Of a stretch of DNA of 64,000 bases, positions 3,052 to 20,520 are shown one piece after another. Origin of the DNA: Capsulimonadaceae bacterium. Its GTDB lineage: Bacteria; Armatimonadota; Armatimonadia; Armatimonadales; Capsulimonadaceae. The notes below the pieces were generated by a model. That model had not been told where the DNA came from and searched no databases. It saw nothing but the letters and a program-made list of their open reading frames with translations. Made by a program: the position numbers and the translations under genes. Location: NCBI GenBank assembly GCA_965213825.1, contig CBDCAE010000005.1, positions 70,443 to 134,442 of the forward strand, written 5' to 3'. How positions within the stretch are numbered: the stretch's first letter is position 1; each line of letters starts with the position of its first letter.

Positions 3052-4169
3052 ATGCTCTTCAAGCCACTCGACAAAGACGCCTTCGCTCATGCCGTTCTCC
3101 AGATTGTCCAGACATCGGGCCTCGGCTCTGTGGTGTATGACCCAGAAACATTCTCGCTGAAAGCCGCCGACCGAGAGATCGTCATTCACCTCGGCAACAT
3201 CTTCGCGGAGCACCTTGCCGCAAAGCCCTGGCGGCGCAGCCGAGTTCTTGAAGGCTTCACACGCCATCTACAGGGCGTACTGGCGGCCGTGGAGCCGACG
3301 GCAGATTATGCCAAAACCGCGCTGCGTCCACGTGTTCGTGAGCGCACCTACTTTGAGGTGCAGCGTCTGCGTGACGAGATCGCAGGGACCCAAAGGCCCG
3401 AAATCCTCTTCCGCGAACTCGGCGGCGGGCATCTGGCACTGGAAGTCGTACTGGATCAACCCGACAGCCTGAGAAGCATATCCGTTGATGATCTGAACGA
3501 GTGGGGAATGACCTTTGAGGACGCCGTTCTTATCGCGAATGACAATTTGCTTACTCTTGGGCTGGGCCGCTTCCAGTCGCCGAGGCCAGGGCTGTTCGTA
3601 TCGGCCTGGCACGATGTGTATGATGCGTCGCGTCTGCATCTCGCAGAGATCGTCAGCGGCCTCGCGGTGAAGGGGCGTCCCGTGGCGATGGTGCCGAACC
3701 GGAATAGTCTGATCATTACCGGGGCAGATGACGCCGAAGGACTGTTGGCGATGGCGCGGCTGACGGAAGAAGCGCTGAAACAGCCTCGGCCCATGACAGG
3801 CTACGCATTCCGGCTGGACAACGGCTGGGTGCCGTTCCTGCCGCCGGCGGGTCATCCAGAGTATATCTCGCTGCATCGTTTGTTCGTGCAGACGCTGGCG
3901 GGGATTACGAGGAGCAGAAGGGGCTGCTGGAGGCACTGCACAAGAAGAAAGGCATGGACACTTTTGTTGCCAGCGTCATGGTGATGGAAGATCGAAGCAG
4001 CAAGAATCTGTCGTCGGTCGCGACCTGGGCTGAGGGGGTGGATGCGCTTTTGCCGCGTGTGGACCGCGTTGCGTTTATTGGGGCCGGCACTGCGAATGAC
4101 CCGAATATCCTGGGCATGGCGGATTGGGCGCGGGTTGAAGCGGTTTTGGGGGATCTGCTGGAAGCGTAG
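3052..4169 (+). pseudogene. Hypothetical conserved protein interrupted by a -1 frameshift in a G-run (or sequencing error)
   Basis: The frame of ORF 2944..3984 reads ...EYISLHRLFVQTLAG, then nonsense. The frame of ORF 3954..4169 continues DYEEQKGLLEALHKKKGMDTFVASVMV... from 3900. The junction is GGGG at 3900-3903; one extra G would fuse both parts. Confidence 0.5.
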
Positions 4170-4474
4170 GGGCTGTATCCGGAACGATACAGGGTGCGGG
4201 AGTTCCCGGCGTCGGAGCAGTTAAGTCGGCTGGAACTGGTATAAGAGGTGTTGCTTGTAATGTCTCTTCCCGGTGTTGACAAGAACCAATATCACACTGG
4301 ACAAACTTCAGTAAACAACCATAAAGATTTCCAGATCCCGGATAAAATTTTTAGAACTTCATCAACGATGGGAAGAAGGAATCGGTGAAGGTACAAGCGA
4401 ACATAACGTATATTATCCCTGCCTTTCCATAACAAAACTCCCAAAATAATTCCGTATTCACCCGTGTTGAGCAA

Positions 4475-5980
4475 ATGAATTTTGAAGATCTACCAACGGT
4501 TGGTTACGAAGAAGCAAAGCCAGATGCAGGTGGTGTAGCGCAGGCTTTTGCCAGAATCGGTTACCAACTTGAAGAAGCCTTAGCAGACCTAGTAGACAAC
4601 TCAATCGATGCCGGAGCAGGCAATATCCTGATCCGATTCTATCGCGATTCTAACTCCATCAAACGGATAGTTGTGGTCGATGATGGTCGTGGAATGTCGC
4701 CCACCGAGATGCGACGAGCCATGCAATTTGGCGTACGCCAAAAACACAAAAAGTCAGATCTAGGCAAGTACGGCATGGGTCTGAAAACGGCTTCATTCAG
4801 TCAATGTCGTTCTTTAACTGTCCTCACAAGACATCGAGAAGTATCAACAGGTCGTCGGTGGACTTTATCATCAATTGAAAAAGGTTGGCTTACGGAAAAG
4901 ATTTCTGATGCTGCGACACACAATTTTTTTTTGGGCTTCTGGACTTACTTTGACATCATCCAGCATGGGTCTATCATTGTGTGGGACGAACTTGATCAAT
5001 TCAAAGTTTTAGAGCATGGTTTCGAGGCTGGGCTAACGCGCATTCTGAGACAGATCGACAAGCATCTTGGATTGGTCTTTCATCGTCTTATTAACGAAAG
5101 CAAATGTCAAATCTCGGTAGACACATATAATTACCAAACGGATGCGCCCGGTCCGCAGTTTGTTGTCAAGCCACTCGACCCGTTTTCCTATATACGCACT
5201 GGTAAAACAGGTTACCCAAAGATATTCAAAATGCTATTTTCTGATCTTCCGCCACTCAGGTTGGAGGCTCATATTTGGCCGCCTCAGTCGGTTCTTCCAG
5301 GCTACAAATTGGGTGGAGGAAATGTTGCGGCCCGGCAGGGTTTTTATATATATCGGAACAACCGTCTTATACAAGCAGGTGGCTGGAATGGTTGGCGAGA
5401 AAGCGACTCCGAGCCACATGTTTCCTTGGCACGGATCAAGATTGACATCAACGATCAATATGGAGACGTGTTTCGTTTGAAGGTGCAGAAGTCAGGAACG
5501 GATGTATCTCAGGACTTTCGTAATGCTCTTAGCGTGGTTTCGAGCGGAAAAACAACGCTCACAGACTTTGTTCAGGATGCTGTCAGCACATACAGAAAGT
5601 CGCAGGCGAATCTACGAAGAACGTGCCTTGTTCCTGGAAAGGGCATACTGCCAAAACTTCAGTCCGCAATGAAGTCGGTCCTGGCAGAGAAAAATGACAT
5701 GATTGGAACAATAGACTTTGAATGGAAGCAAATGCCACCAAACATTGTCTTCTATGCTGCTGCCGATGAATGCCGTATTTACTTGAACAGTGAGTATCGT
5801 GAGAAACTATCCCAGAAAACAAGAGCGTCAACAAATGATGCTACTGTTGCAAAGACACTACTCTTCATGCTGTTGCGGGATGAGTTGCAGAGCAGACGGC
5901 AAAGCAAAAAAAGCACAAGAGCAACCGAAGCCCTTAATTCTATATTGTACGCGATAGTAAGCGGAGACCACAATGGCTGA
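4475..5980 (+). CDS. GHKL-superfamily (MORC/MutL-like, HATPase_c_3-type) ATPase, R-M associated
   Basis: Bergerat-fold motifs: EALADLVDNSIDAGA (N box), VVVDDGRGM (G1), LGKYGMGLKTAS (G2). 8-nt overlap (ATGGCTGA) with the next ORF. Confidence 0.85.
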   Translation: MNFEDLPTVGYEEAKPDAGGVAQAFARIGYQLEEALADLVDNSIDAGAGNILIRFYRDSNSIKRIVVVDDGRGMSPTEMRRAMQFGVRQKHKKSDLGKYGMGLKTASFSQCRSLTVLTRHREVSTGRRWTLSSIEKGWLTEKISDAATHNFFLGFWTYFDIIQHGSIIVWDELDQFKVLEHGFEAGLTRILRQIDKHLGLVFHRLINESKCQISVDTYNYQTDAPGPQFVVKPLDPFSYIRTGKTGYPKIFKMLFSDLPPLRLEAHIWPPQSVLPGYKLGGGNVAARQGFYIYRNNRLIQAGGWNGWRESDSEPHVSLARIKIDINDQYGDVFRLKVQKSGTDVSQDFRNALSVVSSGKTTLTDFVQDAVSTYRKSQANLRRTCLVPGKGILPKLQSAMKSVLAEKNDMIGTIDFEWKQMPPNIVFYAAADECRIYLNSEYREKLSQKTRASTNDATVAKTLLFMLLRDELQSRRQSKKSTRATEALNSILYAIVSGDHNG

Positions 5981-6965
5981 GGCAACTAGACACCTGACAT
6001 GGGACAACTTTAACACAATTATCACTGAGGCTATACCAGGGCTTCATCGGGTTACCGGCTCACCTCCGGTTGATCTCTTCGTTGATCCAGAAGGCGCGAG
6101 GATTGGTTTGCGAGTACCGTATCCGTATGAATGTACAGTCCCCCCAAGTCCACTATCAGAAGTGAAAATAGAGCGTATCATGATCGCAGGGGAGGCTTTT
6201 GTTGATATTACAACCGGTAGCAGGCTTCTTTACGCTGAGTTTTATTCGCTAATGATCACTATTGCCAATAAAATTCAAAGTGACAAAATGGATCCCCTTG
6301 TTGCATTCGGGGAAACACTGGACAGTTGGCGGGTCCTGTTGCGATCAGTAGCAGTTCTAACTGAGGACCAGCAACTGGGCCTTCTTGGAGAACTTTGGAT
6401 GCTAGAGCGTCTGCTCATGAACAAAGGACCACGGGCGATACGTTTCTGGGTTGGGCCTCTTGCTGAAGAACACGATTTTCGTCTGACTGATCATGATTTT
6501 GAGGTCAAGTCTACCCGATCGTTACAGCGCGTGCATATTATTAGTAGTCTTCAACAACTGCAAAATGGACTAGGGCGGCGGTTGTTCCTTTTGTCGTTAC
6601 AATATGGTCTAGCACCAACTAACTTATCGCTCCCAAGCGCGGTTCAGAATGTCCGCGCTTTGTTGAGCGGAGATATTGAAGAACTTGCGACCTTCAATGA
6701 CTTGCTCACAAATGGCTCTGGATACCGCGATGAGTACGCAATACATTACCCGGCAACTTATTTTATGAGAGCACAGCCAGTAATCGTGCCGATTGACGTA
6801 TCTTTTCCAAAAATAACACCGTCGACTATAGCCAGCATTCATGATGGCAACCGGATCAGCGATGTGAAATATCGCGTGAATATTGAAGGTATGGGCTTTA
6901 AGGATGGGAGCGATCCATTCTGTTCTATTTTACCAGCGGTGGGAGGAAGTATTGTCAAACTTTAA
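5973..6965 (+). CDS. PD-(D/E)xK motif protein (putative nuclease subunit)
   Basis: EEHDFRLTDHDFEVKSTRS fits D...(D/E)xK. Overlaps both neighbouring ORFs. Confidence 0.7.
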   Translation: MAEATRHLTWDNFNTIITEAIPGLHRVTGSPPVDLFVDPEGARIGLRVPYPYECTVPPSPLSEVKIERIMIAGEAFVDITTGSRLLYAEFYSLMITIANKIQSDKMDPLVAFGETLDSWRVLLRSVAVLTEDQQLGLLGELWMLERLLMNKGPRAIRFWVGPLAEEHDFRLTDHDFEVKSTRSLQRVHIISSLQQLQNGLGRRLFLLSLQYGLAPTNLSLPSAVQNVRALLSGDIEELATFNDLLTNGSGYRDEYAIHYPATYFMRAQPVIVPIDVSFPKITPSTIASIHDGNRISDVKYRVNIEGMGFKDGSDPFCSILPAVGGSIVKL

Positions 6966-9870
6966 CGTATCGACCGTTCTGCAGATTGTAAAGAGTGCTT
7001 TCGGCGGTATGGTGGCAGGACCCACAACTTTAGGTAGAAACCTGGAATTTTTTTCCAGCCAACTTTTGCCCGGCGAGACGTTGACGACGCAGAAGTTAAT
7101 CGATTGGCTCAGGCTTGAAGATGCAAATGATCCCATAAAAGCCGTAGTGAAAAGGCAACTTCAACAATGGGATTTTGAGGGTCATTTGGCGTGGATAGCC
7201 GACACCCTCAAAAACTCGAACAAGCGCAGGCAGCATATATACGACAGTCTTGGAATTGAAGGAGAAGATCGTAATTTCATGGATGATGTATTCCCGCCAT
7301 ACATCATGATCGAGCCTGTTGTCGTCATCGCTGAGGAGCATGAACCATGGTACCAATTATCTGCATCAAGACAAGAGTTCTATTGGAACGCTTATTGCAA
7401 GCAACTTCGGGAAGTAGCAGGTTGGTCTGAGGAAAGTGTACAGGTACTGGCTGATAGCACCGAGAAAGTAGTCGAGCGTATATCAAATCCGGAGCGTGCT
7501 GAAGCCTACCAGGCGAAAGGATTAGTTATCGGCTATGTTCAGAGTGGAAAAACCGCTAACTTCACAGGCGTAATTGCCCGCGCCGCTGATGCTGGCTACA
7601 GGCTGATCATTGTCCTTGCCGGAACCACCAACAATCTTCGCCAGCAAACACAGCGTCGTATTGATAAAGAGTTGGTCGGGATAGAGTTTCTTGAACACGA
7701 ATATGCAAATGATGATGACTATAGCGCGTTTCTGAGTCATGGAACATTGCCCTCGACGATGGGCGCGTTTGATTGGCAACGCCTCACCGGGCCAAACGAG
7801 GATTATCAGGCACTGCGTCAAGGTATCGAGTCGCTTAATTTTCCACGCTTTGATCCGTCACTTCCGTTTTATCATTCCGTCAATCTGCAACATGCAACCG
7901 CACGGATTATGGTGGTGAAGAAGAGCCCAGCAATTTTGAAGAAGGTTGCAGCGGACCTGAAACGGATCAAGGAGCAGAAAAAGGTGCGGATTGGAGATAT
8001 ACCTGCTCTGATTATTGATGATGAATCTGATCAGGCATCAGTAGACACCACCAAACCAAGTCCTCAGCAACGAAAAAAGCGAACGGCTACTAACAGAGCC
8101 ATAGTTGGTCTTTTGGAAGAACTGCCTAGGGCGCAGTATATAGGCTATACTGCTACGCCGTTCGCAAATGTCTTTATCAATCCTGAAGATGCTGCTGATC
8201 TTTTTCCAAAAGATTTTCTTGTTCCACTTCCGCGTCCGAAGGGATACATGGGAGCCAATGATTTCCACGATCTTGAAGCCGAAATTCCTGAAGGGTATCT
8301 ATCAAATGAACGTGCGTTTGTACGCCCTGTCACCGGATCGGATGAGCAGCCAGAAAATCTGCAAAAAGCACTGGACGCCTACGTCCTTTCCGGTGCCATC
8401 AAACTATTTCGCGAGAAGCATGTCCCACAGATCAGGTTCAAGCATCACACTATGCTCGTCCACCACTCGCAGAGCACTGAGACACATGAAACCGTTGCGA
8501 GGACAGTTGATCGCTTGCTAGAAAACTCTGGATACGATGCGGGGGCTGGTCTTCAGCGTCTTCAAAGCCTGTGGACGAATGATTTTCTTCCGATAAGTAA
8601 TGAACGTGAGACTCCTTGGCCTCTCCCGTCAACATTCTCCGAGTTACTGCCGTTTTTAGGGGAATGTCTTCATCGGTTACGTAGTGGTGGTAGATCAGTA
8701 ATTGTGGTCAATGGCGATCATGATGCTCCCGATTTCGACCGGGATCGAATATGGAAAATTCTAGTGGGCGGTGTCAAGTTATCACGCGGTTACACGGTCG
8801 AGGGACTTACAGTTAGTTATTACCGTAGAGTTACGCGTTCTGCGGACACCTTGATGCAGATGGGCAGATGGTTCGGGTTTCGCGAAGGTTATCAGGATCT
8901 AGTCCGCCTGTTCATAGGCACAAATGAGCCTTTAACAAGATACAAAAAAACTAATCTATTCAAAGCATTTGAGGCAGTCTGCCGTGACGAGATGGAATTT
9001 CGTACCGAATTGCAGCGTTACGCGATGCCTAGTGATGGCTCAAAACCTGTAACACCTATGCAGGTGCCTCCTCTCGTGCCTGCCCACCTATTACAACCGA
9101 CGGCAACGAACAAGATGTATAATGCTGTCATCAAGTCACAGAACTTTGGTGGTAAGAATATACAATCGACCTTGGCTCCCTTCAGGGACGAAGACGTGCT
9201 TCACAATGAGACGGCGATGAAGTCACTGCTTCAGAACCGCACATTGAAGATACGATCGCTGAAGGTTAAGACAGAAAAGGAAGCGCTTCAGAACTCTTCC
9301 TTTGTCACAGAAATAGAACCAGATGCGATAATCGAGTTCCTCAAAACATATCGCTGGCTTAACCTTAAGCAAAATTTAGCGTTGCAATTAGAGTTTCTCG
9401 CCGGAAAACATGGCGATCCTGAAATAGACCGCTGGCTTTTCATCGCACCAATAGCAGACACAGACAGAACTTGGACGGTTAATGATGCTGATCTGAATGT
9501 TGTAGAGCGTTCCAGGACAGAGACACCAACAGGAAGATACGGAGTTTATACCACATCGAGAGATGTAGACATTGCCAGACCGCTGGTTGGTCGGCATGGA
9601 GCCACTGAATTTAGTGACGATCTTCAAGAGTTAATTCGCCCGAAACAGGCAGTTCTTCTGTTCTACCCGGTGCGGGACCGCAACGATCCAGAATATGTCA
9701 AAACCGCTGAAGGCCCGAGGGCTTTTGTGACTATGGGTTTCGCACTCATGTTACCAGAAAACAGTATTAAGTCGAAAATAAAATTTGGCGTCAGAGACAG
9801 TAAAAGAAAAGATGAAGTTGTCGTTGAAACAGATGGTCTTCGGGAAGATCTGATAACTGACATTGTTTAG
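6952..9870 (+). CDS. Z1-domain P-loop NTPase (SF2-like)
   Basis: Walker A GYVQSGKTANF, Walker B-like ALIIDDESDQAS, GYTATPFAN, KLSRGYTVEGLTVSYY and LMQMGRWFGFREGY (Z1 hallmark). The longest ORF starts at 6883. TTG 6952, preceded by GGAGG (6942-6946), is the more likely start. Confidence 0.85.
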   Translation: MSNFNVSTVLQIVKSAFGGMVAGPTTLGRNLEFFSSQLLPGETLTTQKLIDWLRLEDANDPIKAVVKRQLQQWDFEGHLAWIADTLKNSNKRRQHIYDSLGIEGEDRNFMDDVFPPYIMIEPVVVIAEEHEPWYQLSASRQEFYWNAYCKQLREVAGWSEESVQVLADSTEKVVERISNPERAEAYQAKGLVIGYVQSGKTANFTGVIARAADAGYRLIIVLAGTTNNLRQQTQRRIDKELVGIEFLEHEYANDDDYSAFLSHGTLPSTMGAFDWQRLTGPNEDYQALRQGIESLNFPRFDPSLPFYHSVNLQHATARIMVVKKSPAILKKVAADLKRIKEQKKVRIGDIPALIIDDESDQASVDTTKPSPQQRKKRTATNRAIVGLLEELPRAQYIGYTATPFANVFINPEDAADLFPKDFLVPLPRPKGYMGANDFHDLEAEIPEGYLSNERAFVRPVTGSDEQPENLQKALDAYVLSGAIKLFREKHVPQIRFKHHTMLVHHSQSTETHETVARTVDRLLENSGYDAGAGLQRLQSLWTNDFLPISNERETPWPLPSTFSELLPFLGECLHRLRSGGRSVIVVNGDHDAPDFDRDRIWKILVGGVKLSRGYTVEGLTVSYYRRVTRSADTLMQMGRWFGFREGYQDLVRLFIGTNEPLTRYKKTNLFKAFEAVCRDEMEFRTELQRYAMPSDGSKPVTPMQVPPLVPAHLLQPTATNKMYNAVIKSQNFGGKNIQSTLAPFRDEDVLHNETAMKSLLQNRTLKIRSLKVKTEKEALQNSSFVTEIEPDAIIEFLKTYRWLNLKQNLALQLEFLAGKHGDPEIDRWLFIAPIADTDRTWTVNDADLNVVERSRTETPTGRYGVYTTSRDVDIARPLVGRHGATEFSDDLQELIRPKQAVLLFYPVRDRNDPEYVKTAEGPRAFVTMGFALMLPENSIKSKIKFGVRDSKRKDEVVVETDGLREDLITDIV

Positions 9871-9874
9871 CAGG

Positions 9875-10576
9875 TCAACGACCAGAATCGCTTTTCCTCT
9901 GGTTCTCACTCTGTGGTTGAATCAGGGCAAAGTAGGCGCAACGATTATCGACAGCAAAAGAACATAAGTTGCATCGGGGGCGAAGCGCAGTACAAACTTT
10001 CGCACCGAAATCCAGGACCGCATAGTGGTAACTCACTGGGTCTGGTGAATACACAACGGCCTGGATTGCTCTTTTTACGTCTGAGCGCCGACGCGCCTCA
10101 CCCTGAATCTTGAGACCGAATATTCTGCCTACAACTCGGACAATATTTGTATCAACCAGAGCGATGTTTTGCCCATCGGCGAAACAACTAATGGCAGCAC
10201 TGGAGTAGTCGCCAATTCCGGGCAATGCTTTAAGTTTCTCCGCGTCAACTGGTAGTTCTCCTCCATATTGGCTGGAAGCCTCTTTAACAAAGTTGACGAA
10301 TTTCTCTGCACGCCATGCTAATCCCAGTGACAACAGCATCCTTTTAACTTCAACAGGATCACCTTCTTTGGCATCGTTTAGAGTTGGATATTTCTTAACG
10401 AAGTCTCGATATACAGGCATGACTTGATCGGCTTTGGTCCTTTGCAACATGAACTCAGATACGGCCACACGATATGGTGTTCTGTTTGTCCTCCAGGGGT
10501 AGTCTCTCTTTCCTTCTTGCCACCAGTCAAGAAGAAGTTTCTGATACAAATAGATGTTTTCTCTGCTTTGATCCAT
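9875..10576 (-). CDS. HhH-GPD / [4Fe-4S] DNA glycosylase of the MutY/Mig type (short form, no NUDIX domain)
   Basis: DYPWRTNRTPYRVAVSEFMLQRTKADQV, LKALPGIGDYSSAAI (HhH), LVDTNIVRVVGR (catalytic Asp position), and C-terminal Cys cluster CTALRPRCNLCSFAVDNRC. ATG 10576 (MDQSRENIY...) overlaps the MTase 3' end by 50 nt. Confidence 0.8.
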   Translation of the reverse strand: MDQSRENIYLYQKLLLDWWQEGKRDYPWRTNRTPYRVAVSEFMLQRTKADQVMPVYRDFVKKYPTLNDAKEGDPVEVKRMLLSLGLAWRAEKFVNFVKEASSQYGGELPVDAEKLKALPGIGDYSSAAISCFADGQNIALVDTNIVRVVGRIFGLKIQGEARRRSDVKRAIQAVVYSPDPVSYHYAVLDFGAKVCTALRPRCNLCSFAVDNRCAYFALIQPQSENQRKSDSGR

Positions 10577-12167
10577 GAATTGTTTCCATGAGATTGTAAA
10601 CAATCTCTGCAATTTGCGATGCGAGCAAAGGGGGAACAGCATTACCAACCTGCTTGTATTGCTGTGTTCGCGATCCCTCGAAGAAGTAATTATCCGGAAA
10701 CGTCTGTAAACGTGCTGCCTCTCTTACCGTCATGCTTCGGCACTGGAGCGGATCGTAGTGTATTGTGTAATGACCATCCTTAGACATATGTGAGACAATA
10801 GTTGTGGATGGCCTTTGCTCAACTTGCACTCGAAAACGATCATCAAAATGGTCAGCAGAAGCGTCTAGAGCCACGTTCTTATGGTTAGGACGCAACGCTT
10901 TTGGAAAATTAGCCATTTTTGGTGAGGACTTGTAGACTTGAGCGAAACAGGCCGCAAAAAGATACCGGTGAAGATCCTCAGCGATATGTGAACGGGCAGT
11001 GTGATTGTAGACGCCTCCGAGACGCATGTCTTCAAACCAATCGGCTCGATAAGATACTTGTGGCTCCCACGGAACGAACTCGCCGCCTGTTGACAATCCC
11101 GCAGGAATAGTGTTAGCAGCATTTTCAATTGTGCATCTGAGATTTTCGATAAATAGGTCTTCGTCGGATTCTGCCAACTGAGCAAACCACGGCTGATCAA
11201 GAATACGTCGTATTGCCGCCCTCCATTCATCATCATTGTCTTCTTGTCGTGAAAGACGACTACGAAGTTTTGGCAGATCGCGCAGAACCCTGCCGGCAGC
11301 AACACGAGAACCATACTTTGTAAGCCCACCAGGAGTTGCGCCTAAATCCTTTCTAACGCCCAGCAGAATAACCCGATGTCGCGCTTGAGGAATGCCATAA
11401 TCTTCAGCCTTGATGATGAAATCAGTAGGCTGAAGATCATTGGGAGACGCCCGATCCATTACAAGCGAAAAAATTTCGTATTCTGTTTTCTTGTCCAGAG
11501 AAATCCCAGGTATTGTGGTTGTCGGTTCATCTGGTCTTAGAAGAGCAACAACTGGCTGTTTTAGGTCTGCAATGATTCTCTCGAATATTGGTTTGCCATC
11601 AACTGTCGCGGATAATATTCCAGTCACATTTTCCATAACGAACACAGAAGGCTGGAAGCGGGCAATAATTCGAAGGTACTCTCGATAAAGAAAATGTCTA
11701 TGGTCTTTGGCGAACTTTTCCGGGTTGCCCGAGCGCATTCTTGACCGTCCTATTGTTGAGTACGCCTGACAGGGGGGGCCGCCGATGAGAACCCAGTCCT
11801 TGTTGGGACTGATCTCTAACCTTCTTTCAATCCAGTGATTGATATTATCATCATCATCGGACCCAAGTTCTGCCAACCTCGCCTCTGTGCGTGAAGCCCT
11901 TGCCTGCACAGGGAACCGATCGAACAGTTCGGCTCTTGAAATTTCGCCTCGCAGATATTTGTAATAATCCGCAGGAACATCCAGGTAGACAAATTGCCGA
12001 TAGAAACTTCGCAGTTCAAGTGTCCGATGTGCATGAGCATCTTTTTCTACCGAAAGTTGAATCTTAAACGATGGGCGTCTGCTTCCGTTCCTCCGATAAC
12101 TCGCGAAACCTTCACCAAGCCCTCCCGGGCCAGCAAAAAGATCTATAACAGGAATGGACGTTCGCAT
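10527..12167 (-). CDS. DNA (cytosine-5)-methyltransferase
   Basis: Motif I VIDLFAGPGGLGEGF, IV GGPPCQAYS, VI VFVMENVTG, VIII PQARHRVILLGV, IX/X RLQTFPDNYFF ... QVGNAVPPLLA. Long variable region between VIII and IX. Confidence 0.95.
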   Translation of the reverse strand: MRTSIPVIDLFAGPGGLGEGFASYRRNGSRRPSFKIQLSVEKDAHAHRTLELRSFYRQFVYLDVPADYYKYLRGEISRAELFDRFPVQARASRTEARLAELGSDDDDNINHWIERRLEISPNKDWVLIGGPPCQAYSTIGRSRMRSGNPEKFAKDHRHFLYREYLRIIARFQPSVFVMENVTGILSATVDGKPIFERIIADLKQPVVALLRPDEPTTTIPGISLDKKTEYEIFSLVMDRASPNDLQPTDFIIKAEDYGIPQARHRVILLGVRKDLGATPGGLTKYGSRVAAGRVLRDLPKLRSRLSRQEDNDDEWRAAIRRILDQPWFAQLAESDEDLFIENLRCTIENAANTIPAGLSTGGEFVPWEPQVSYRADWFEDMRLGGVYNHTARSHIAEDLHRYLFAACFAQVYKSSPKMANFPKALRPNHKNVALDASADHFDDRFRVQVEQRPSTTIVSHMSKDGHYTIHYDPLQCRSMTVREAARLQTFPDNYFFEGSRTQQYKQVGNAVPPLLASQIAEIVYNLMETIHGSKQRKHLFVSETSS

Positions 12168-12619
12168 AAGTTGAAATTATTTTCTCCAGGCATGAATGAC
12201 ACACGAGGGCAGTAGTTTTTACCAATGCTTAGAATGGAGCATTAACGAAAGAACTTTCTTTGCTCCCACCAGTATTAGTCTCAAGGTGCTACCTGGTTTT
12301 GTTCGACAGTGTTGAAAATTATATTGGAGTTGTTGCAGCCAACAAATATGCTAGTCTTGAACCAGCATCCTGATTTATGATTCTGTCACGCCGTCTTTAG
12401 TCATAAATGCGTACAGCCGTCATATTTTGTATCGGGCTTTTCAGACGATGAGGTACGAAACAGGATGATCTTCTGAAGTATCCATGTCTATTATCTCAGA
12501 GGGAAGTCCATCCTTCTGTTTGTCGATCAGGCCAGTCAGTTCTGTCGCTGGTGTCACAGTAATGCCGCCGACAATGCTGTTCTCCCACTCCTCTACCGAT
12601 TTCTCATCGGTTCGTTAAA

Positions 12620-12641
12620 GACCGTCTATTCTGAGACGGTC
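12620..12641. other. Perfect 8-bp hairpin GACCGTCT-ATTCTG-AGACGGTC in a gene-free AT-rich spacer
   Basis: Read directly. No U-tract follows. Confidence 0.3.
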
Positions 12642-13106
12642 CATCAGGCTGACACACGAAAAAAGCCTTCTATGTCAACTTGTTTTGTTCCTTGTCAGCA
12701 ATCGGCTACCTCCGCGTCGATCCACTTAGCAAAGGAAAAATTGGTGCTATGGAAATATCTATTATACATCACTACCACAAGTTTCAAGCACAAAACAGAT
12801 GTTGTGGCCTACTACTCCGTTGAAGTTTCGGGTGTCGCCACTCGCACCCGTGTCATGGTCATTATCGGCATACATATGATGCCCGATACCGTTATGTAGT
12901 TTTGGCTAAATCTTGCGTCGACAAAGCCAGCACCCTGCAACGCTGGAAAAGCACGGGTCTCAACAGACAGTCACTTCCTTTTTCACTTCTCGTCTTCAAC
13001 CCGGAACCGGGTCTTCATCTTTCGCTCTGTTCGCAACCTTGGCTGGTTCCCTTGCTATGTTCACTATTTCGTTACACGCCTGTTACAAACTCAACAGCCA
13101 GCAACT

Positions 13107-13556
13107 TTAAGGCGTAGAAATCTTGCGCCGCGCCGCATCCAGAACTTTCTCAATCTGCGTCCCTGTCAGACTACAGTTCGTGCACACAAGGCGAAGTTCC
13201 TGAAAGAATCCCTCAGACAACCCAAGCGGCTCGGCTCCGGCTTCGCCTGTATGTCGGGCCAGAAGTATGCCTGGCTCCACGGCAATGATCTCCTCGATCG
13301 CAGGTTCTGTGGCCTTGAAGTCGCAGAGCCAGCCGACAATTGCAATGCCCTCCGGCGAGGCTCCCAACGTGCCATCAATGAGATGGCTCACGAGGACCTC
13401 CAGTGGGTTTTCGACGATAGGTGTTACGCTCAAAGATTTACTCCTGGCAAGTTTGGTTCCACTCGCGTAGGTTCGCCAGTTGAAGAGCGCAATCCTGCCG
13501 CGTTCATCCCTCCATCTTTCGGGCTGGGCAGGTGTTTTTGAGCGGGCAAAAGACAC
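13107..13556 (-). CDS. Hypothetical protein
   Basis: 149-aa ORF with a GTG start overlapping the upstream gene by 53 nt. No recognisable motifs. Confidence 0.4.
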   Translation of the reverse strand: MSFARSKTPAQPERWRDERGRIALFNWRTYASGTKLARSKSLSVTPIVENPLEVLVSHLIDGTLGASPEGIAIVGWLCDFKATEPAIEEIIAVEPGILLARHTGEAGAEPLGLSEGFFQELRLVCTNCSLTGTQIEKVLDAARRKISTP

Positions 13557-14295
13557 AACCTTCGCCGGGATTGGGCTGATGCTTCTTATCGGTAAGGGTT
13601 TTGACCGCCGCGTTCATCAGAACAGCATGAATACCTTTAAGGTCGCGGTCTTCAACTCTTTCCATTGTGACCCGGCCGTCAGCAACAAACAGAAACTCTA
13701 CGCAAAAGCGCTTGAAGCCAAGGTCCTTGTACTCACGTTTCGCCAATGCCAACTGGATGTACACCTTACGCAAATCAATACCTGGCGGGTCTTCCCCAAT
13801 AGTAGTTTTGATTTCGCGGACACAGAGCCGATCCGGCTCTGAGGCTCGGACCAACGTCTGATCCAGACGGCAGGAAAATAATCCGATGACTTCACTCTCG
13901 TGCCAGATTGGTCCTTCGAGCGGCAGTTCTAAATCTAAAATGCCGGCTACGGCTTCGGGATCGGACTCATCGTTTCCAATGATCGCGCAAACCGAGGAGA
14001 TAACACGTTGCGTCGCGTCCCTCTTATCGACGCCTTCCGGCCAGCGGCCCTTGAAAACGGCAGTACGCGCCCAGGCTTCCAGGTGATCAACGCAGGGCCG
14101 ATCGCCAACCCGATTTTGGTAGGCCAACTTCAGAGTTTCGTGAGTAGCAATGCCATGCGAAACTGACTCGGCTCGGGGCCTGCTCGGCCACAACTTCTTG
14201 TTGCGGAGAGTGTCCCACCGGTAACCACATTCAGTATCGGCGAGGGCCGATGGTGTAATACGAGGCAATTCCGCGAAACGGGCGGTGTCGAGCAT
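13504..14295 (-). CDS. Cas4/RecB-like PD-(D/E)xK exonuclease with Fe-S cysteines
   Basis: N-terminal Cys (DTECGYRW), ILDLELPLEG, CVREIKTT (ExK), YIQLALAKREY, C-terminal CVFCPLKNTC. Confidence 0.7.
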   Translation of the reverse strand: MLDTARFAELPRITPSALADTECGYRWDTLRNKKLWPSRPRAESVSHGIATHETLKLAYQNRVGDRPCVDHLEAWARTAVFKGRWPEGVDKRDATQRVISSVCAIIGNDESDPEAVAGILDLELPLEGPIWHESEVIGLFSCRLDQTLVRASEPDRLCVREIKTTIGEDPPGIDLRKVYIQLALAKREYKDLGFKRFCVEFLFVADGRVTMERVEDRDLKGIHAVLMNAAVKTLTDKKHQPNPGEGCVFCPLKNTCPARKMEG

Positions 14296-14458
14296 CTTAC
14301 GTCTCCGGGCGGGGATGCGTCCCGATACGGCTGGGTCGCTCGAAGGCAGTGTACCCTAAAAATCATCAAAACGATGATTTATTATGAAACGGGGCCTCAG
14401 ATTTTTTACAAACTATTGTTCGCTTGTTAAAGTCAGTTTGTAGCGGTATTCTGTCCCT

Positions 14459-14704
14459 ATGCCAGACCAGCCGCTTGATACTGCTGCAGGAGATCCCGAA
14501 AACCCAAACTACATCGGCACGAGAGAAGCGGCCTTGATCCTGGGTGTCAGCGAGATCACTGTCCGATCTGCAATCAATGAAGGCAGGCTACCATTCCGGT
14601 TGGCATACGGCCACAAGGTCGTTTCGCGTGCCGCACTCGAAGAATACCGCGCCCGAACACAACCCGACGGTCAGCCCAAGCGCGGCCGACCGAAAAGCAA
14701 ATAA
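14459..14704 (+). CDS. xis: Excisionase-family helix-turn-helix DNA-binding protein
   Basis: IGTREAALILGVSEITVRSAINEGRLPF, followed by a basic tail. Confidence 0.7.
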   Translation: MPDQPLDTAAGDPENPNYIGTREAALILGVSEITVRSAINEGRLPFRLAYGHKVVSRAALEEYRARTQPDGQPKRGRPKSK

Positions 14705-14740
14705 ACTCACCCACGTCGTAAAGTTCCGACGTGGGTGAGT
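14705..14740 (+). terminator. Perfect 14-bp hairpin right after the xis-like stop (no clear U-tract)
   Basis: ACTCACCCACGTCG-taaagttc-CGACGTGGGTGAGT. Confidence 0.45.
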
Positions 14741-15118
14741 TCACTGGTTGAAGAGCAACATTGGTGCGGCGTCACATGGTCACTCTCAGCCGTTGCATTC
14801 CGGGTGGCCGCCGGGGCGTGGTTCTGATCAATGAGGGTGGAAACAAGTTGTTAGCCTCAGTGGCTTTCCCCGCTCCCGGCTCTCGCCGGCAACTTCTGGC
14901 GCCCTGGCCGGAAATGAAACCACTGAAATATGAGCCTTGATACCAAAAGCGGCGGGTTATCCGTCTGATACAGAGGGACACTCTTCCAGGCATTCAGCCG
15001 TAAATGGCTGCCGAAGATTAGACGCCGTTTGTCAATCATTATACCAACAATCCCAAGGCGAGAAGTATTTCGCCTTGGGATTGTCATCTCCTGGCCTGCA
15101 CCCTGCAGTGCTGCGACT

Positions 15119-15982
15119 TCATTGCCGAAGGTTGACTACCCGGACAAAGGCACGCCGCTCTTCAAGGCATACCTCGCTCATCGCACGAATTCGTGCAACT
15201 GTCTGCACATGTTTGTCGACTAAAACCAGTTTTCCGGGCGCGTGAGGATCTCCTGCTGCAGCCTCTTTCATGAGTTCTAAACGTTCGGCAAGAAGGCTAT
15301 CATAGGACTCGTAGCGCCAGGAATCGTCAAAAATCCGTGTTCCATCGAAGATGCACTTGGTAATAGATTTCGCCATTTCGAGCCTGGCGGGCCAAACTTC
15401 GTAGTCCCAGAATAGACACCCCGCCAATTCCATCAGGTTTGGACACAAGGACTGGTTTACGACTGCATATCGAACGATCGCCTCGCGTGGGATATGGCCC
15501 TTGTATGTAACAAGGCCAACTTTCTCGAATGACCGTACCCATTCCCGACGTGCTAGGGGTAGGCGCATAGAAATTGGTGGCGGGACAGGTGCTTCATGGC
15601 CTTTTTCGTTGACCTCATCATTAGCCCATCCGAGGTAGATCTCACCTGGATAAAGTTTTGCCAGATCCAGAAAGGTCGTGTCAATTTCGAGAATGACTGG
15701 GTCTGGCTGGGCTCCATCCTCAGAGCAGAAAAAAGATTGGTCGCCTGCATAATAAAATCCGTTCGCGCGCGTCAGGCCGACAAATCCAATCGGCGAGGGG
15801 TACGCGGATCTACCTTCCTCGTCTTCTTCAAGGGGGGGCAAACCATGAAGCAGGATGCTTTCAAGATCGTTCGTCGTGGTTCCATTGTAGATGCGTGGTG
15901 TGTAAAGAATACCGGGATGAGGACCGCAGGGGGCAGAGGGTTGGGAAGAGCAACGTTCGTCGTTGCCTTGGTTGTCGATCAT
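15119..15982 (-). CDS. Hypothetical protein (possible divergent ADP-ribosyltransferase/Tpt1-like fold; speculative)
   Basis: 287-aa ORF. IYNGTTTNDLESILLHGL ... PVILEIDTTFL ... FEKVGLVTYKGHIPREAIVRYAVV. A hairpin AATCCCAAGGCGA/TCGCCTTGGGATT lies downstream at 15049-15082. Confidence 0.5.
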   Translation of the reverse strand: MIDNQGNDERCSSQPSAPCGPHPGILYTPRIYNGTTTNDLESILLHGLPPLEEDEEGRSAYPSPIGFVGLTRANGFYYAGDQSFFCSEDGAQPDPVILEIDTTFLDLAKLYPGEIYLGWANDEVNEKGHEAPVPPPISMRLPLARREWVRSFEKVGLVTYKGHIPREAIVRYAVVNQSLCPNLMELAGCLFWDYEVWPARLEMAKSITKCIFDGTRIFDDSWRYESYDSLLAERLELMKEAAAGDPHAPGKLVLVDKHVQTVARIRAMSEVCLEERRAFVRVVNLRQ

Positions 15983-16285
15983 AGTTCCTTGTTTCTCCGA
16001 TCTTTTTGATGTTTAAATTTTGTTCCTGCAAGAAATTGCAACAAGGCACAGTGCTGGCTGCTGAATTTATTCGGTAAGTACCAAGATACGATTTCAGTCT
16101 CTGCATTGATTTATCGAAGCGGTCAACTCAGTTAAGCAAATGGGTCTCCATCATCGCCAAGTGCCACTGCTGGCAACTCCGGCTACTCGAACCATGGGTG
16201 ACACTATCAGCGTTTCGGATCCGGATCCGCGTTTGAGACAAGAAGCAGCGAACGAAGAAGGAATTTCCGTTGTCCCTGCTGTGTA

Positions 16286-16507
16286 TCAATCGTCATCAAA
16301 ATCCGCTCCGTCGATCAACGCGAAACTACGCGGCGAAAGCATCGACTTGAGTGCCGCGCGGTGTGTCATTCCTCCGGCCCGTAATCTCTTCAACTCTTCA
16401 TCCTCGTCAACCGATAACAAATAGGGTAGCCATCCTGGCAATGTGCCGGGAAGTGGATCTTCGCCAAGTGGGTCGTCCAAGTTTTCTTCTATCTTCTTTC
16501 CCTTCAT
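16286..16507 (-). CDS. Small acidic hypothetical protein
   Basis: 73-aa ORF, 22 nt downstream of the 197-aa ORF. Confidence 0.35.
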   Translation of the reverse strand: MKGKKIEENLDDPLGEDPLPGTLPGWLPYLLSVDEDEELKRLRAGGMTHRAALKSMLSPRSFALIDGADFDDD

Positions 16508-16529
16508 GACCGTTCTGAGCGGCCTGAAT

Positions 16530-17123
16530 TTACAACCGGTTCCGGTCCTGAACTGAACTTCGAAGTCCCGAAACCAGGTAACGCATTACGTCGCTGCGCC
16601 GATAAATCCCACGGCGCAGCGGGCGGATGTACCGGCTCACGCTTGCCTCCGGGCAGGCCAAGAGCACCGCCGCTTGGCTGCGCGTGAGGGCACAGTCTTC
16701 GCGCAGAGGAGAGACATCTTTGACAGCGGCGATGAACTCGGCCATGACGGTCGCAAGATCGGTTTTGTGCTGGTTGAAGACTTGAAGTTCGGTAGTATTC
16801 ACCTCTTCAAGTGACTTGTCAACAGCCTCGCCCAAGTCGCCGTCTTTCAAGAACTCACGGAGCAACCGCGAGGCATGAGGCCGAATTCCTTTCCGACGGC
16901 GGTAGAAATCCAAAAAACCTTGGACGGCTTCCACTGCGTCGGGCGGGAAGGCCATCCGGTTCCGTCCACCCCGGGCACCTAACTGCACCGCGACATCGTC
17001 CGTGCCGGTCAGATCGCTGAGAGATTTGTAACTGATAGATACCCCTGCTGCTTCCAGGCCCTGGTGCAAAGCGCGGAGCGTAAGCGCTTCGCCGGGTTGG
17101 GGCGGCAGTGCTGCTGTAGTCAT
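16530..17123 (-). CDS. Hypothetical protein, possible HTH regulator
   Basis: 197-aa ORF. C-terminal LTRSQAAVLLACPEASVSRYIRPLRRG resembles an HTH. Confidence 0.45.
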   Translation of the reverse strand: MTTAALPPQPGEALTLRALHQGLEAAGVSISYKSLSDLTGTDDVAVQLGARGGRNRMAFPPDAVEAVQGFLDFYRRRKGIRPHASRLLREFLKDGDLGEAVDKSLEEVNTTELQVFNQHKTDLATVMAEFIAAVKDVSPLREDCALTRSQAAVLLACPEASVSRYIRPLRRGIYRRSDVMRYLVSGLRSSVQDRNRL

Positions 17124-17232
17124 GGTGGTTCACAAGTTCCCTTCTTTTTTCACGAGACAAAGCGAGAGACAGAAAACTTCGATTTCTATCCCAATCGAGC
17201 CGGGGATGGGGGCAGAAAGCGGCCAGGAACAT

Positions 17233-17278
17233 CCAAAAAACAGCCCCCAGCAACCCAAAGTCATTTTGGGCTGTTTTT
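17233..17278 (-). terminator. Rho-independent terminator (stem flanked by an A-run and a T-run, so potentially bidirectional)
   Basis: Minus-strand reading: AAAAAAACAGCCC...GGGCTGTTTTTT, immediately after the stop at 17279-17281. Confidence 0.6.
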
Positions 17279-18922
17279 TTATGTTTGGCGCTGATTCCAC
17301 AGATTTTTCGCCCGCGTCTCGATCGCTGCCGTCGCGACTTCTCCGCAGCCTAATTCGGCAATTTCCGCTTTTGCCTTGGACAACCAGACGGCTTTGTCGT
17401 CTGCAGACAGCGCATCGTACCCATCGCCTTGGTCTTGGGGTGTGCGGCCTCCTGCCTCCAACGGCCGGGCTGGCCGGCCAGGACGAGACGGGCGGCTTGA
17501 ACGGGGATTCAAGTTTTCAGCCTGACGCTGCTGGTCAGTCGCTTTCCATCCCTCGATCTCTTTGAAACCCATTCGCTCTGCCAGCAAATTTTTTGCAAAG
17601 CGATTCACGATTTGACTGTCGCGCTGTGATGGCCGGAGCAGGGCCTTTGTTGCTTCCAGCAGTTCGCCTCGTTTCCCGTCGTTCATCGCCGCCCATTCCT
17701 CGTCCACAGCAGCCTGGTCAGTTTCTGAAAGCGCTGGGGCAGGCTTGGCAGGGGCGTAATGCGTGCGCGGCGCATTGTCGTGGGCTGTCTTGGCGCCGGC
17801 GGCGGCTTTGGTGATCGTTTCACGCAGGTAGAACCACTTGTTGTCAATTTCCTTCCCTTGGCCGATCAGATCGTTGATTTTCTCCAAACTTTCCAAGCAC
17901 AGCCGCGTAGCCGTGGCGGGGCTTGCGCCTTCCAAGGCTTTGTTCAGGGCCTTGCGGAGCGCGGCGGGTCGGCACTTGTCATCGCAGAATTCCTCGATGA
18001 ATGACCGAACCACTTTTTCGTACGCGGGGTCCGGAGTCTCATGGTCGGCAGAGGCAGGTGGGTCGTCACCACTTAGCAAGGGCTGGGGGGCGTTGGGAGG
18101 CGCTACTGGGGCGTTGGGAGGCCCGCCCTCCGTGTCCGAGTCTTTGGCCTCGTCTTGCTCGAAAAGCGAAGCATCGACATCATCATCGTCGGTCGAGTAG
18201 CCACTATCGGCGCAGGGCATATAAATATAAGATGATGATGAATTTCCTTCAAGGTTTAATTCAAAGATTCTTAGTACCGCCATTTTACTCACAAAACTTG
18301 CAGAAAAATGTGCAGTTTTGAATGATTTTCCGTACTTGAATACTGATTTTTCTTCCGAAAATGAAGATTTTTTAGCCTTGCGAGCAGAAAAAAAACCATT
18401 CTTGGAAAAGGGCCGCGACGAAGCAAGCGACTCAGCCAACTTTTTCCGAGCCTGAGCGCGGGCGGCTTTGAGGTCTGCGGCTTTCTGCTTCTTTTCGTCT
18501 TCGCTTTTGATGATTTCGCGCAGACGTTCGCAGTGCGCTTCATCCGCGATGACGGCAATGATACTGCCGTTGAGACGACGGTGCTGGTGGATCAAGCCAT
18601 CCTTTTGGATTTGACCGAAACACTGCTTGAGGTATTTGACACTGCGATTGCATTTTGCTGCAAGGAGTTCAATTTCGCAGGCATTCACAGGCGCATAGCC
18701 CCGAATCGGGCCATCAGGCGCTTTGACATTCGAGGCGAATTCCACCCAACGAAAAAGTTTCTTCTTAATGCCGCCGAGTCGCGGGTCGTTGTAATCGGCA
18801 TCAACGTCCTGCCCCCAGGACTCGCCAGCGGCCTTCATCGCCTCCGAATCTTTCTGAGGCAAGTACGGAAAATTATTTGTGCAAGGCTTGACATCATCAA
18901 GCAAAAGAGGGTAAATAATCAT
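17279..18922 (-). CDS. Large element-encoded protein, putative replication/DNA-binding function
   Basis: Longest ORF runs to 19039; first ATG is at 18922 (MIIYPLLLDD...). Low-complexity acidic and proline linkers. AT-rich internal patch at 18210-18420. Confidence 0.5.
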   Translation of the reverse strand: MIIYPLLLDDVKPCTNNFPYLPQKDSEAMKAAGESWGQDVDADYNDPRLGGIKKKLFRWVEFASNVKAPDGPIRGYAPVNACEIELLAAKCNRSVKYLKQCFGQIQKDGLIHQHRRLNGSIIAVIADEAHCERLREIIKSEDEKKQKAADLKAARAQARKKLAESLASSRPFSKNGFFSARKAKKSSFSEEKSVFKYGKSFKTAHFSASFVSKMAVLRIFELNLEGNSSSSYIYMPCADSGYSTDDDDVDASLFEQDEAKDSDTEGGPPNAPVAPPNAPQPLLSGDDPPASADHETPDPAYEKVVRSFIEEFCDDKCRPAALRKALNKALEGASPATATRLCLESLEKINDLIGQGKEIDNKWFYLRETITKAAAGAKTAHDNAPRTHYAPAKPAPALSETDQAAVDEEWAAMNDGKRGELLEATKALLRPSQRDSQIVNRFAKNLLAERMGFKEIEGWKATDQQRQAENLNPRSSRPSRPGRPARPLEAGGRTPQDQGDGYDALSADDKAVWLSKAKAEIAELGCGEVATAAIETRAKNLWNQRQT

Positions 18923-19141
18923 GGAGTCCGCTGACTTTTGGACACGCACAACTTCCCGGAAGTCGTGTCCAACCTTTCTTTTTTGGAATAAAGGGGAGCA
19001 CGACCGCTGGTGCAAAAAGCCTTGGCGGGCTTTTTGCACGGAACGCGGTCATGTTTCCTTTGAACGACAGTGATCTTTGAATGATGATAAATCCCGGCCC
19101 GGCTTCCCACTAGGGAGTCCGGGTCGTTTCTACGAAAGCGG

Positions 19142-20296: not shown

Positions 20297-20363
20297 TCGC
20301 CGAAAACAACAGCGCAGTTTACCCGAAAACGCCTAGACTGTTCAACCCTCATTTCCGAAGCGC

Positions 20364-20400
20364 CAAAAAAATTCGGCCAGGAATTTTTCCTGGCCGAATT
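20364..20400 (-). terminator. Rho-independent terminator downstream of tRNA-Thr
   Basis: Minus-strand reading: AATTCGGCCAGGAA-AAA-TTCCTGGCCGAATT followed by TTTTTT. Confidence 0.7.
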
Positions 20401-20415
20401 ACTCTGAACTTGTTA

Positions 20416-20487
20416 AGCCGACACGCGGATTCGAACCGCGGACCTGCTGTTTACGAAACAGCTGCTCTACCACTGAGCCATGTCGGC
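20416..20487 (-). tRNA. tRNA-Thr (anticodon CGU)
   Basis: Reverse complement: GCCGACA-TG-GCTC-AGTGGTA-GAGC-A-GCTGT-TTCGTAA-ACAGC-AGGTC-CGCGG-TTCGAAT-CCGCG-TGTCGGC-T. Full cloverleaf. CCA is not encoded. Confidence 0.9.
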
Positions 20488-20520
20488 ATATTTGTTTTCT
20501 AAGAGGAAAGCGACGGCGAG

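Follow-up and report, generated by a model that had tools for sequence, protein, structure and literature searches.

A probable Mig-type DNA glycosylase encoded beside a C5-cytosine methyltransferase in a bacterial restriction-modification-like island, in the place of Vsr

We analyzed a stretch of 64,000 nucleotides (nt) from a Capsulimonadaceae bacterium (contig CBDCAE010000005.1 of assembly GCA_965213825.1), hereafter referred to as the window. The subject of the analysis is a short gene for a DNA glycosylase of the HhH-GPD (helix-hairpin-helix) class that lies directly behind a gene for a C5-cytosine DNA methyltransferase (hereafter, the methylase). The two genes and the features around them are listed in Table 1. 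We consider it likely that the glycosylase is a monofunctional enzyme of the Mig type, which repairs T:G and U:G mismatches beside the methylase made together with it and functionally replaces the endonuclease Vsr. Comparative genomics provides the strongest evidence for this reading.

Table 1. Features of the glycosylase locus and its surroundings (window coordinates; aa, amino acids)
Feature	Position	Strand	Basis or remark
Mig-type HhH-GPD/[4Fe-4S] DNA glycosylase gene (probable type), 233 aa, no NUDIX domain	9875..10576	minus	Open reading frame, Pfam, PDB matches, AlphaFold2, Foldseek
YPWR: Tyr26 and Arg29, at the positions of F27 and R30 in the proposed thymine-methyl pocket of Mig.MthI	10490..10501	minus	Alignment, PMC2714593
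SEFMLQRTKA segment: catalytic Glu41, with Arg46 and Ala49 (Mig.MthI R47 and A50; MutY Gln and Val)	10430..10459	minus	Alignment
Helix-hairpin-helix LPGIGDYSSAAI, residues 118-129; Tyr124 at the Mig.MthI Y126 position	10190..10225	minus	Alignment
VDTN, residues 141-144: catalytic Asp142 and Asn144	10145..10156	minus	Aligned to Bacillus MutY VDGN and Mig.MthI D144/N146
YHYA: Tyr185 at the Mig.MthI L187 / E. coli MutY Q182 position; adenine-reading Gln absent	10019..10030	minus	Alignment, PMC2714593
Four-Cys [4Fe-4S] cluster loop, C195-X6-C202-X2-C205-X7-C213	9938..9994	minus	Motif inspection
Methylase 3' end / glycosylase 5' end overlap, 50 nt, probable translational coupling	10527..10576	minus	Open reading frame coordinates
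C5-cytosine DNA methyltransferase, 546 aa, directly upstream of the glycosylase, same operon	10527..12167	minus	Pfam PF00145, 2.3e-43
HATPase_c_3 (MutL/GHKL-type) ATPase, MzaB-like, first gene of the convergent module	4475..5980	plus	Pfam PF13589, 3.6e-32
DUF4420 predicted PD-(D/E)XK nuclease, MzaD-like	5973..6965	plus	Pfam PF14390, 1e-39
Z1-domain helicase-like protein, MzaC-like, start codon uncertain	6883..9870	plus	Pfam PF10593, 4e-50
Cas4-like PD-(D/E)XK open reading frame	13504-14295	minus	
HTH_17 excisionase-like open reading frame	14459-14704	plus	
Tyrosine integrase	19142-20296	minus	Directly beside tRNA-Thr
tRNA-Thr(CGT)	20416-20487	minus	

The glycosylase open reading frame (ORF) begins with an ATG at 10576 and ends with a stop codon at 9875-9877. 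A mechanical ORF list starts it further upstream, at a TTG at 10648. The ATG start is common to a database protein that is identical across all 233 aa (P0001) and to the 81% identical orthologue at another locus, L001. An earlier note on this DNA had placed the glycosylase start 50 nt inside the 3' end of the methylase gene; this is exact, since the methylase ORF ends at 10527. The 50-nt overlap is likewise present in L001. The overlap is 88% identical to L001 at the DNA level, compared to 77-79% for the remainder of the two genes, a difference that fits dual coding but has low power with only 50 nt compared. Translational coupling of the methylase and the glycosylase is probable. The methylase scored 135 bits, above cut-off, with the NCBIfam dcm superfamily model. 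A promoter scan and inspection of small ORFs in the ~940 nt upstream of the methylase gene (12168-13106) revealed neither a convincing ORF nor a promoter match or a gene for a controller protein.

Pfam analysis of the glycosylase revealed the HhH-GPD domain only. No NUDIX_4 match was found, and the protein ends 20 residues past its Cys cluster. The motifs named in the earlier note for a 233-aa HhH-GPD protein without a NUDIX domain (SEFMLQRT, here residues 40-47, the HhH hairpin, the VDTN Asp and the four-Cys cluster) were all found. The catalytic residues Glu41, Asp142 and Asn144 are kept and are invariant across the clade, and the Cys columns of the cluster are invariant or nearly so; the last Cys spacer, X7, exceeds the canonical X5 by 2 residues. 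Among solved structures, the protein matched Bacillus MutY with an expectation value of 5e-37, Mig.MthI (1kea) with 1.4e-33 and endonuclease III with ~1e-10. An AlphaFold2 model was obtained with a predicted local distance difference test (pLDDT) score of 91.4. Foldseek comparison of the model gave template modelling (TM) scores of 0.85/0.91 to 1kea and of 0.82-0.85 to MutY catalytic domains. Fold comparison was dropped as a discriminator between Mig and MutY catalytic domains, the TM scores all being 0.82-0.85.

The E. coli endonuclease III (Nth) has its lyase Lys120 in the column occupied by Tyr124 of the window protein. The endonuclease III model TIGR01083 gave 62.5 bits, compared to a cut-off of 211.7, so neither this score nor the Tyr at the Lys120 column places the protein in that family. 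With Tyr124 and no lyase Lys, the glycosylase is predicted to be monofunctional.

Specificity determinants that separate Mig from MutY have been published: A50 and L187 in Mig.MthI correspond to V45 and Q182 in MutY, and Y126 of Mig is required for T/G activity (PMC2714593). We compared the window protein with reference sequences that had been checked as exact matches to PDB chains 1kea, 1kg2 and 2abk. In Mig.MthI numbering, position 27 is occupied by Tyr26 of the window protein (Phe in Mig.MthI, Leu in MutY) and position 30 by Arg29 (Arg in Mig.MthI; Gln in E. coli MutY and Arg in the Bacillus enzyme). Arg46 is found at position 47 (Arg in Mig.MthI, Gln in MutY) and Ala49 at position 50 (Ala in Mig.MthI, Val45 in E. 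coli MutY numbering). Position 126 is Tyr124 (Tyr in Mig.MthI; Ser in E. coli MutY and Tyr in Bacillus MutY), and position 187 is Tyr185 (Leu in Mig.MthI, Gln182 or Glu in MutY). As judged from this alignment, the pocket of the glycosylase is Mig-like at the positions that separate Mig.MthI from MutY. Every long homologue with a NUDIX domain has the MutY pocket pattern.

Profile searches pointed in the same direction. A methylase-linked profile was built from 80 methylase-linked homologues, leaving out those at least 42% identical to the window protein, and Mig.MthI was held out of both this profile and a MutY profile. The window protein scored 242.5 bits with the methylase-linked profile and 204.2 with the MutY profile, 38 bits apart; the respective scores of Mig.MthI were 220.3 and 195.5, 25 bits apart. 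In a neighbour-joining tree, sequences with the MutY signature formed a clade from which both Mig.MthI and the window protein were absent in 85 of 100 bootstraps.

The short form of the glycosylase constitutes a large family. In a search of 1.84 billion representative proteins, the best 150 clusters all scored at least 211 bits and are almost all 180-300 aa long. Arg or Lys at position 47 together with Ala at position 50 was found in 106 of the 149 non-query clusters among them; Gln47 combined with Val or Ile at position 50, as in MutY, was found in 3 of the 149.

A rival explanation is a truncated adenine glycosylase like MutY, with A:G or A:8-oxoguanine (8-oxoG) as its substrate, which would serve as the housekeeping enzyme or be a spare copy on the island. 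Its catalytic Glu, Asp and Asn are common with MutY, its best pairwise matches are MutY catalytic domains, and public records name its relatives "A/G-specific adenine glycosylase". The best NCBIfam model is also mutY (TIGR01084), but the score of 160.5 bits is far under the cut-off of 286.5. The NUDIX-like domain that reads 8-oxoG is absent, and the equivalents of Val45 and Gln182 are Ala and Tyr. The MutY profile lies 38 bits below the methylase-linked one, and the gene is located within a low-GC (guanine plus cytosine) island. We regard an adenine glycosylase as decidedly unlikely.

Several observations weigh against the Mig assignment. Pairwise comparison gave 131 bits and 34% identity between the window protein and MutY, compared to 120 bits and 28.5% identity for Mig.MthI. 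Since pairwise similarity is slightly nearer MutY, the assignment leans on signature, profile and context. The PADLOC model PDLC03398, which amounts to Mig.MthI itself (it scores Mig at 533 bits), gave 116.5 bits for the window protein, ~98 for genuine MutYs and 121 for one short protein with the MutY signature. Position 187 is Tyr and not Leu as in Mig.MthI, although Tyr at this position is also common in the clade. The V45A/Q182L mutants of E. coli MutY gained no T/G activity (PMC2714593); thus, the pocket residues look necessary, with sufficiency unproven. The phylogeny gave a divided answer to the earlier note, which had proposed a tree against MutY and Mig: sequences with the MutY signature were set apart, but Mig.MthI did not group with the methylase-linked sequences and instead joined Nth, the only outgroup, through a long branch. 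This placement shows long-branch attraction to the outgroup. Finally, the peptide patterns by which the 80 loci described below were retrieved included RT[KQ]A, and therefore the frequency of the signature in that set is partly built in; methylase linkage is unaffected by this choice.

The genomic context of related glycosylases was surveyed by scanning one genome per species with peptide patterns derived from the glycosylase only. The 80 loci obtained, the best match among them being 50% identical to the window protein, were subjected to ORF calling and iterated hidden Markov model searches. Bacterial loci came from Chloroflexota, Cyanobacteria, Armatimonadota, Bacillota, Desulfobacterota, Spirochaetota, Bacteroidota/Ignavibacteria, Actinomycetota and others. 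Archaeal loci came from Methanosarcina, Methanoperedens, ANME-1, Bathyarchaeia, Thermoplasmatota, Thermococcaceae and others. This survey of such genes beside C5-methylases, suggested in the earlier note, revealed strongly conserved linkage: a C5-methylase gene lies within 8 kb of the glycosylase gene in 69 of the 80 loci. In 49 loci the methylase gene immediately precedes the glycosylase gene in the same orientation, very often with a 4-nt overlap; it is adjacent in another orientation in 5 and in the same cluster at a distance of 0.3-4.5 kb in 15. A contig edge was reached at 5 loci. No methylase was detected by ORF calling and iterated searches in 6 loci, 3 of which have neighbours of restriction type in their short flanks (AIPR; helicase-MZB-PLD; a 720-aa HATPase). 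Outside this set, methylase linkage was also found in the five closer metagenomic relatives whose flanks were informative (P0002, P0005, P0008, P0011 and P0014), and the sole match in 2.9 million viral contigs has a methylase gene directly upstream of the glycosylase gene.

In addition, three of the best 150 clusters (P0091, P0109 and P0156) are fusions of an N-terminal glycosylase with the Mig signature to a C-terminal C5-methyltransferase. The domain order of these fusions is the reverse of the usual operon order. An enzyme of oxidative damage repair gives no rationale for methylase linkage at 69 of 80 loci or for fusions, a further point against an adenine glycosylase.

The systems in which the pair is found differ. 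The HATPase-Z1-DUF4420 set, with or without AIPR, is the partner in 11 loci as well as in the window, L001 and L005. A ~700-780-aa HATPase-homologous protein is present in 28 loci, a helicase with an MZB domain in L003 and L028, and a PLD-type restriction enzyme on the annotated Caldicellulosiruptor plasmid pCALKR01. Some loci contain the methylase and the glycosylase alone, with no recognisable defence partner. A recurrent arrangement of methylase, ~700-780-aa HATPase_c_3 homologue, a gap of ~1.1-2.4 kb and glycosylase was seen in L029, L047, L050, L052, L053, L057, L065, L067, L068, L071, L081 and L084.

The earlier note had considered the enzyme to be a Mig-like glycosylase dedicated to the target of its methylase. 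The pocket, the profiles and the context uphold the Mig-like part of this proposal. Tailoring to the target was not borne out: 24 of 128 glycosylase pairs that are at least 60% identical adjoin methylases that are at most 30% identical, and the presence of similar glycosylases beside very different methylases argues against tailoring to one target sequence. Glycosylase and methylase distances gave a Spearman coefficient of 0.16, with no correlation among deep pairs, and target-specific co-evolution of the two proteins was dropped as a candidate on this weak correlation. The glycosylase appears to be exchangeable between methylases, which fits a context-tolerant mismatch enzyme.

These results bear on a second rival explanation, according to which the protein is a general repair enzyme for uracil or damaged pyrimidines, found near methylases only because it travels on mobile restriction-modification cassettes. 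Related glycosylases do adjoin unrelated methylases with no target tailoring evident, and Mig.MthI itself has a broad specificity, with U/G equal to T/G and above G/G and others (PMC2714593). Against this, linkage is specific to C5-methylases in at least 3-4 types of system, with the reading frames overlapping or fused. Hitch-hiking alone would not yield fusions or such consistent 4-nt overlaps, and Vsr occupies the same slot of a related system. A general repair enzyme is, in our estimate, unlikely.

The earlier note had called the protein a MutY/Mig-type enzyme and not a Vsr endonuclease, and this holds: in addition to the HhH-GPD-only architecture, there is no match to the Vsr family PF03852 in the glycosylase, and jackhmmer searches with a verified E. 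coli Vsr seed found no Vsr homologue in the window locus or in 88 related loci. On a metagenome contig, Ga0182027_10010185 (L096, 5208-12649), the genes for HATPase, DUF4420, Z1, methylase and Vsr follow one another on one strand. Here Vsr overlaps the 3' end of the methylase gene by 8 nt, and the Z1 protein is 50% identical to that of the window, which makes this the closest Z1 module found beyond L001. On a Rhodovastum plasmid (L094), an annotated Vsr-methylase pair is convergent with genes for an ATPase, Z1 and a PD-(D/E)XK protein. The position of Vsr beside the methylase in these related HATPase-DUF4420-Z1 systems indicates that in the window the glycosylase holds the Vsr slot. L096 and the window together present a direct example of alternation between Vsr and a Mig-type glycosylase in one slot.

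The three plus-strand genes facing the glycosylase gene (Table 1) form a module that resembles MZA systems. The ATPase scored 165 bits with the NCBIfam MzaB model (cut-off 850) and matched PADLOC MzaB with 2.6e-46. The DUF4420 protein scored 94.6 bits with MzaD (cut-off 420) and the Z1 protein 298 bits with MzaC (cut-off 1500). As far as these scores indicate, the three genes are homologous to those for MzaB, MzaD and MzaC and are not equivalogs. The listed Z1 ORF starts at a TTG and overlaps the DUF4420 gene by 83 nt (6883-6965). Its L001 orthologue, 972 aa long, was called 23 aa shorter, with a 14-nt overlap with the DUF4420 gene, and the true start of the window Z1 gene is therefore probably further downstream. 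The Z1 and glycosylase genes are convergent, with stop codons 4 nt apart (9870-9875), and a terminator scan found no terminator-like site between them. In L001 the five genes are arranged identically, and the Z1 and glycosylase genes overlap by 4 nt (3058-3061). A fusion of RDD and signal-peptidase S26 domains flanks the island both in the window (993-2066) and in L001 (9951-11048), suggesting the same chromosomal position of the island in two related organisms.

The GC content is 47% in the block between ~4 and ~13 kb of the window, compared to 55-63% around it. A tyrosine integrase gene lies directly beside tRNA-Thr, and excisionase-like and Cas4-like ORFs are located between the restriction-modification-like block and the integrase/tRNA-Thr pair. 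No att direct repeats were found for this region (4000-20500). The low-GC block looks like a horizontally acquired, tRNA-integrated genomic island of restriction-modification-like content.

A third rival explanation, made by analogy with restriction glycosylases, Brig1 and END nucleases, is that the protein is a defence component, which would excise bases from invading DNA or sense it (unmethylated sites, modified phage bases) for the HATPase/DUF4420/Z1 proteins. Its gene lies inside a defence-like module and converges with it, the stop codons being only 4 nt apart, and HhH/EndoIII-like domains serve as sensors in END nucleases (PMC12191111). At one further locus, L049 (5970-8696, Stenomitos frigidus ULC18), a 633-aa C5-methylase has a degenerate, Mig-like HhH domain in its C-terminal part (aa 423-615), which has lost the catalytic Glu and Asp to other residues but retains the Cys cluster; downstream lies a separate, intact gene for a glycosylase. 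This domain may be an inactivated glycosylase reused for DNA binding or sensing, and its fusion to a methylase counts in favour of a defence function. However, across very different systems the gene tracks the methylase and not the nuclease module, and some loci hold the methylase and the glycosylase without a recognisable defence partner. The catalytic residues are intact, unlike those of END sensor domains (PMC12191111), and the pocket resembles a mismatch-thymine pocket. We consider a defence component very unlikely. A more specific version, to which we give as little weight, makes the glycosylase a working part of the defence island, for example by producing abasic sites in incoming DNA, at U:G/T:G or where targets are unmethylated, for processing by HATPase-DUF4420-Z1, or by acting as a damage sensor that couples the methylase to the nuclease. 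The convergent packing, the methylase-glycosylase fusions and the inactivated domain of L049 are compatible with such a part.

The likely Mig-type repair function suggests the following sequence of events. The glycosylase and the C5-methyltransferase would be made together from one transcript with overlapping reading frames. The methylase would produce 5-methylcytosine (5mC), whose hydrolytic deamination leads to T:G mismatches, while methylase-promoted deamination of the target cytosine may give rise to U:G. A mispaired T or U would be flipped into the pocket formed by Tyr26, Arg29, Arg46, Ala49, Tyr124 and Tyr185, and the glycosidic bond would be cut by means of Asp142 and Glu41, leaving an abasic site. 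Host apurinic/apyrimidinic endonuclease, polymerase and ligase would then rebuild the C:G pair, with re-methylation to follow. In this role the enzyme would be a non-homologous stand-in for Vsr, cutting the mutational cost of an acquired 5mC island composed of the methylase and HATPase-DUF4420-Z1. Mig enzymes have been described as evolved against 5mC deamination, with U/G accepted too (PMC1636421).

The type of enzyme and its rationale are known, and the locus introduces no new principle; it is a new member, bacterial and mesophile-looking, within a Z1/HATPase/DUF4420 island. The Mig.MthI precedent dates from 1996, and the REBASE-derived PADLOC set already contains a Mig model. Less well recognised are how broad the family is, how consistently it replaces Vsr, that fusions exist and that its members are routinely annotated as "adenine glycosylase". 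We found no literature survey of Mig-like genes beside bacterial methylases, which is no proof that none exists. If the Mig reading holds, the locus is one example of a large, systematically mislabelled family, recorded as "A/G-specific adenine glycosylase" or "hypothetical", and calling these proteins adenine glycosylases is probably an error. The family would then replace Vsr beside C5-methyltransferases in many Bacteria and Archaea, in several unrelated architectures of restriction-modification and defence and sometimes as a fusion, and estimates of the mutational cost of 5mC in prokaryotes should include a Mig-type repair route. The family would also offer a natural series of Mig/MutY pockets, in which residue 187 is Leu, Phe, Tyr or Trp, for studies of thymine versus adenine selection.

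Among known systems, the glycosylase can be compared with Mig.MthI (PDB 1kea; Methanothermobacter plasmid pFV1) and Pa-Mig (Pyrobaculum), which are likewise single-domain HhH-GPD/[4Fe-4S] proteins of ~220 aa without NUDIX. With Mig.MthI it shares the catalytic Glu, Asp and Asn, an aromatic residue at 27, Arg at 30 and 47, Ala at 50, Tyr at 126 and a non-polar residue at 187, and both prefer the methylase-linked profile to the MutY profile. The window protein differs from Mig.MthI in its overall sequence (28.5% identity), in Tyr at 187, in the X7 last Cys spacer (X5 in the Mig type) and in a GEARRR motif conserved in its clade. Its host context is bacterial-looking and apparently mesophilic, and its partner is an HATPase-DUF4420-Z1 module. 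The mig gene presumably adjoins the M.MthTI methylase gene on pFV1; this plasmid was not among the 40 matches listed of 80 plasmid matches. MutY provides the closest solved structures by sequence and fold, and the catalytic triad and the iron-sulfur cluster are common to both. In contrast to MutY, the window protein has no NUDIX-like domain, scores below the TIGR01084 cut-off, has Val45 and Gln182 replaced and lies in another gene context.

The eukaryotic T:G glycosylases MBD4 and TDG share the inferred task, repair of 5mC deamination. MBD4 has a glycosylase domain that is a distant HhH-GPD relative (expectation value ~1e-4), but it lacks an iron-sulfur cluster and the similarity is weak and partial. 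TDG belongs to a different superfamily (UDG fold). The island itself is comparable to MZA-type or Z1-HATPase_c_3-DUF4420 clusters: its trio matches MzaB, MzaD and MzaC in NCBIfam and PADLOC, and annotated plasmids carry the same HATPase-DUF4420-Z1 trio with a cytosine methylase. It differs from MZA in that the trio is far below the NCBIfam equivalog cut-offs and a glycosylase takes the place of Vsr; an AIPR gene, present in the related loci L005 and L062, is absent from the window. With Vsr the glycosylase shares its inferred role and its genomic slot, right after and overlapping a C5-methylase gene. The two proteins are not homologous, and whereas Vsr nicks 5' of the mismatched T, the glycosylase would excise the base and hand the site over to base-excision repair.

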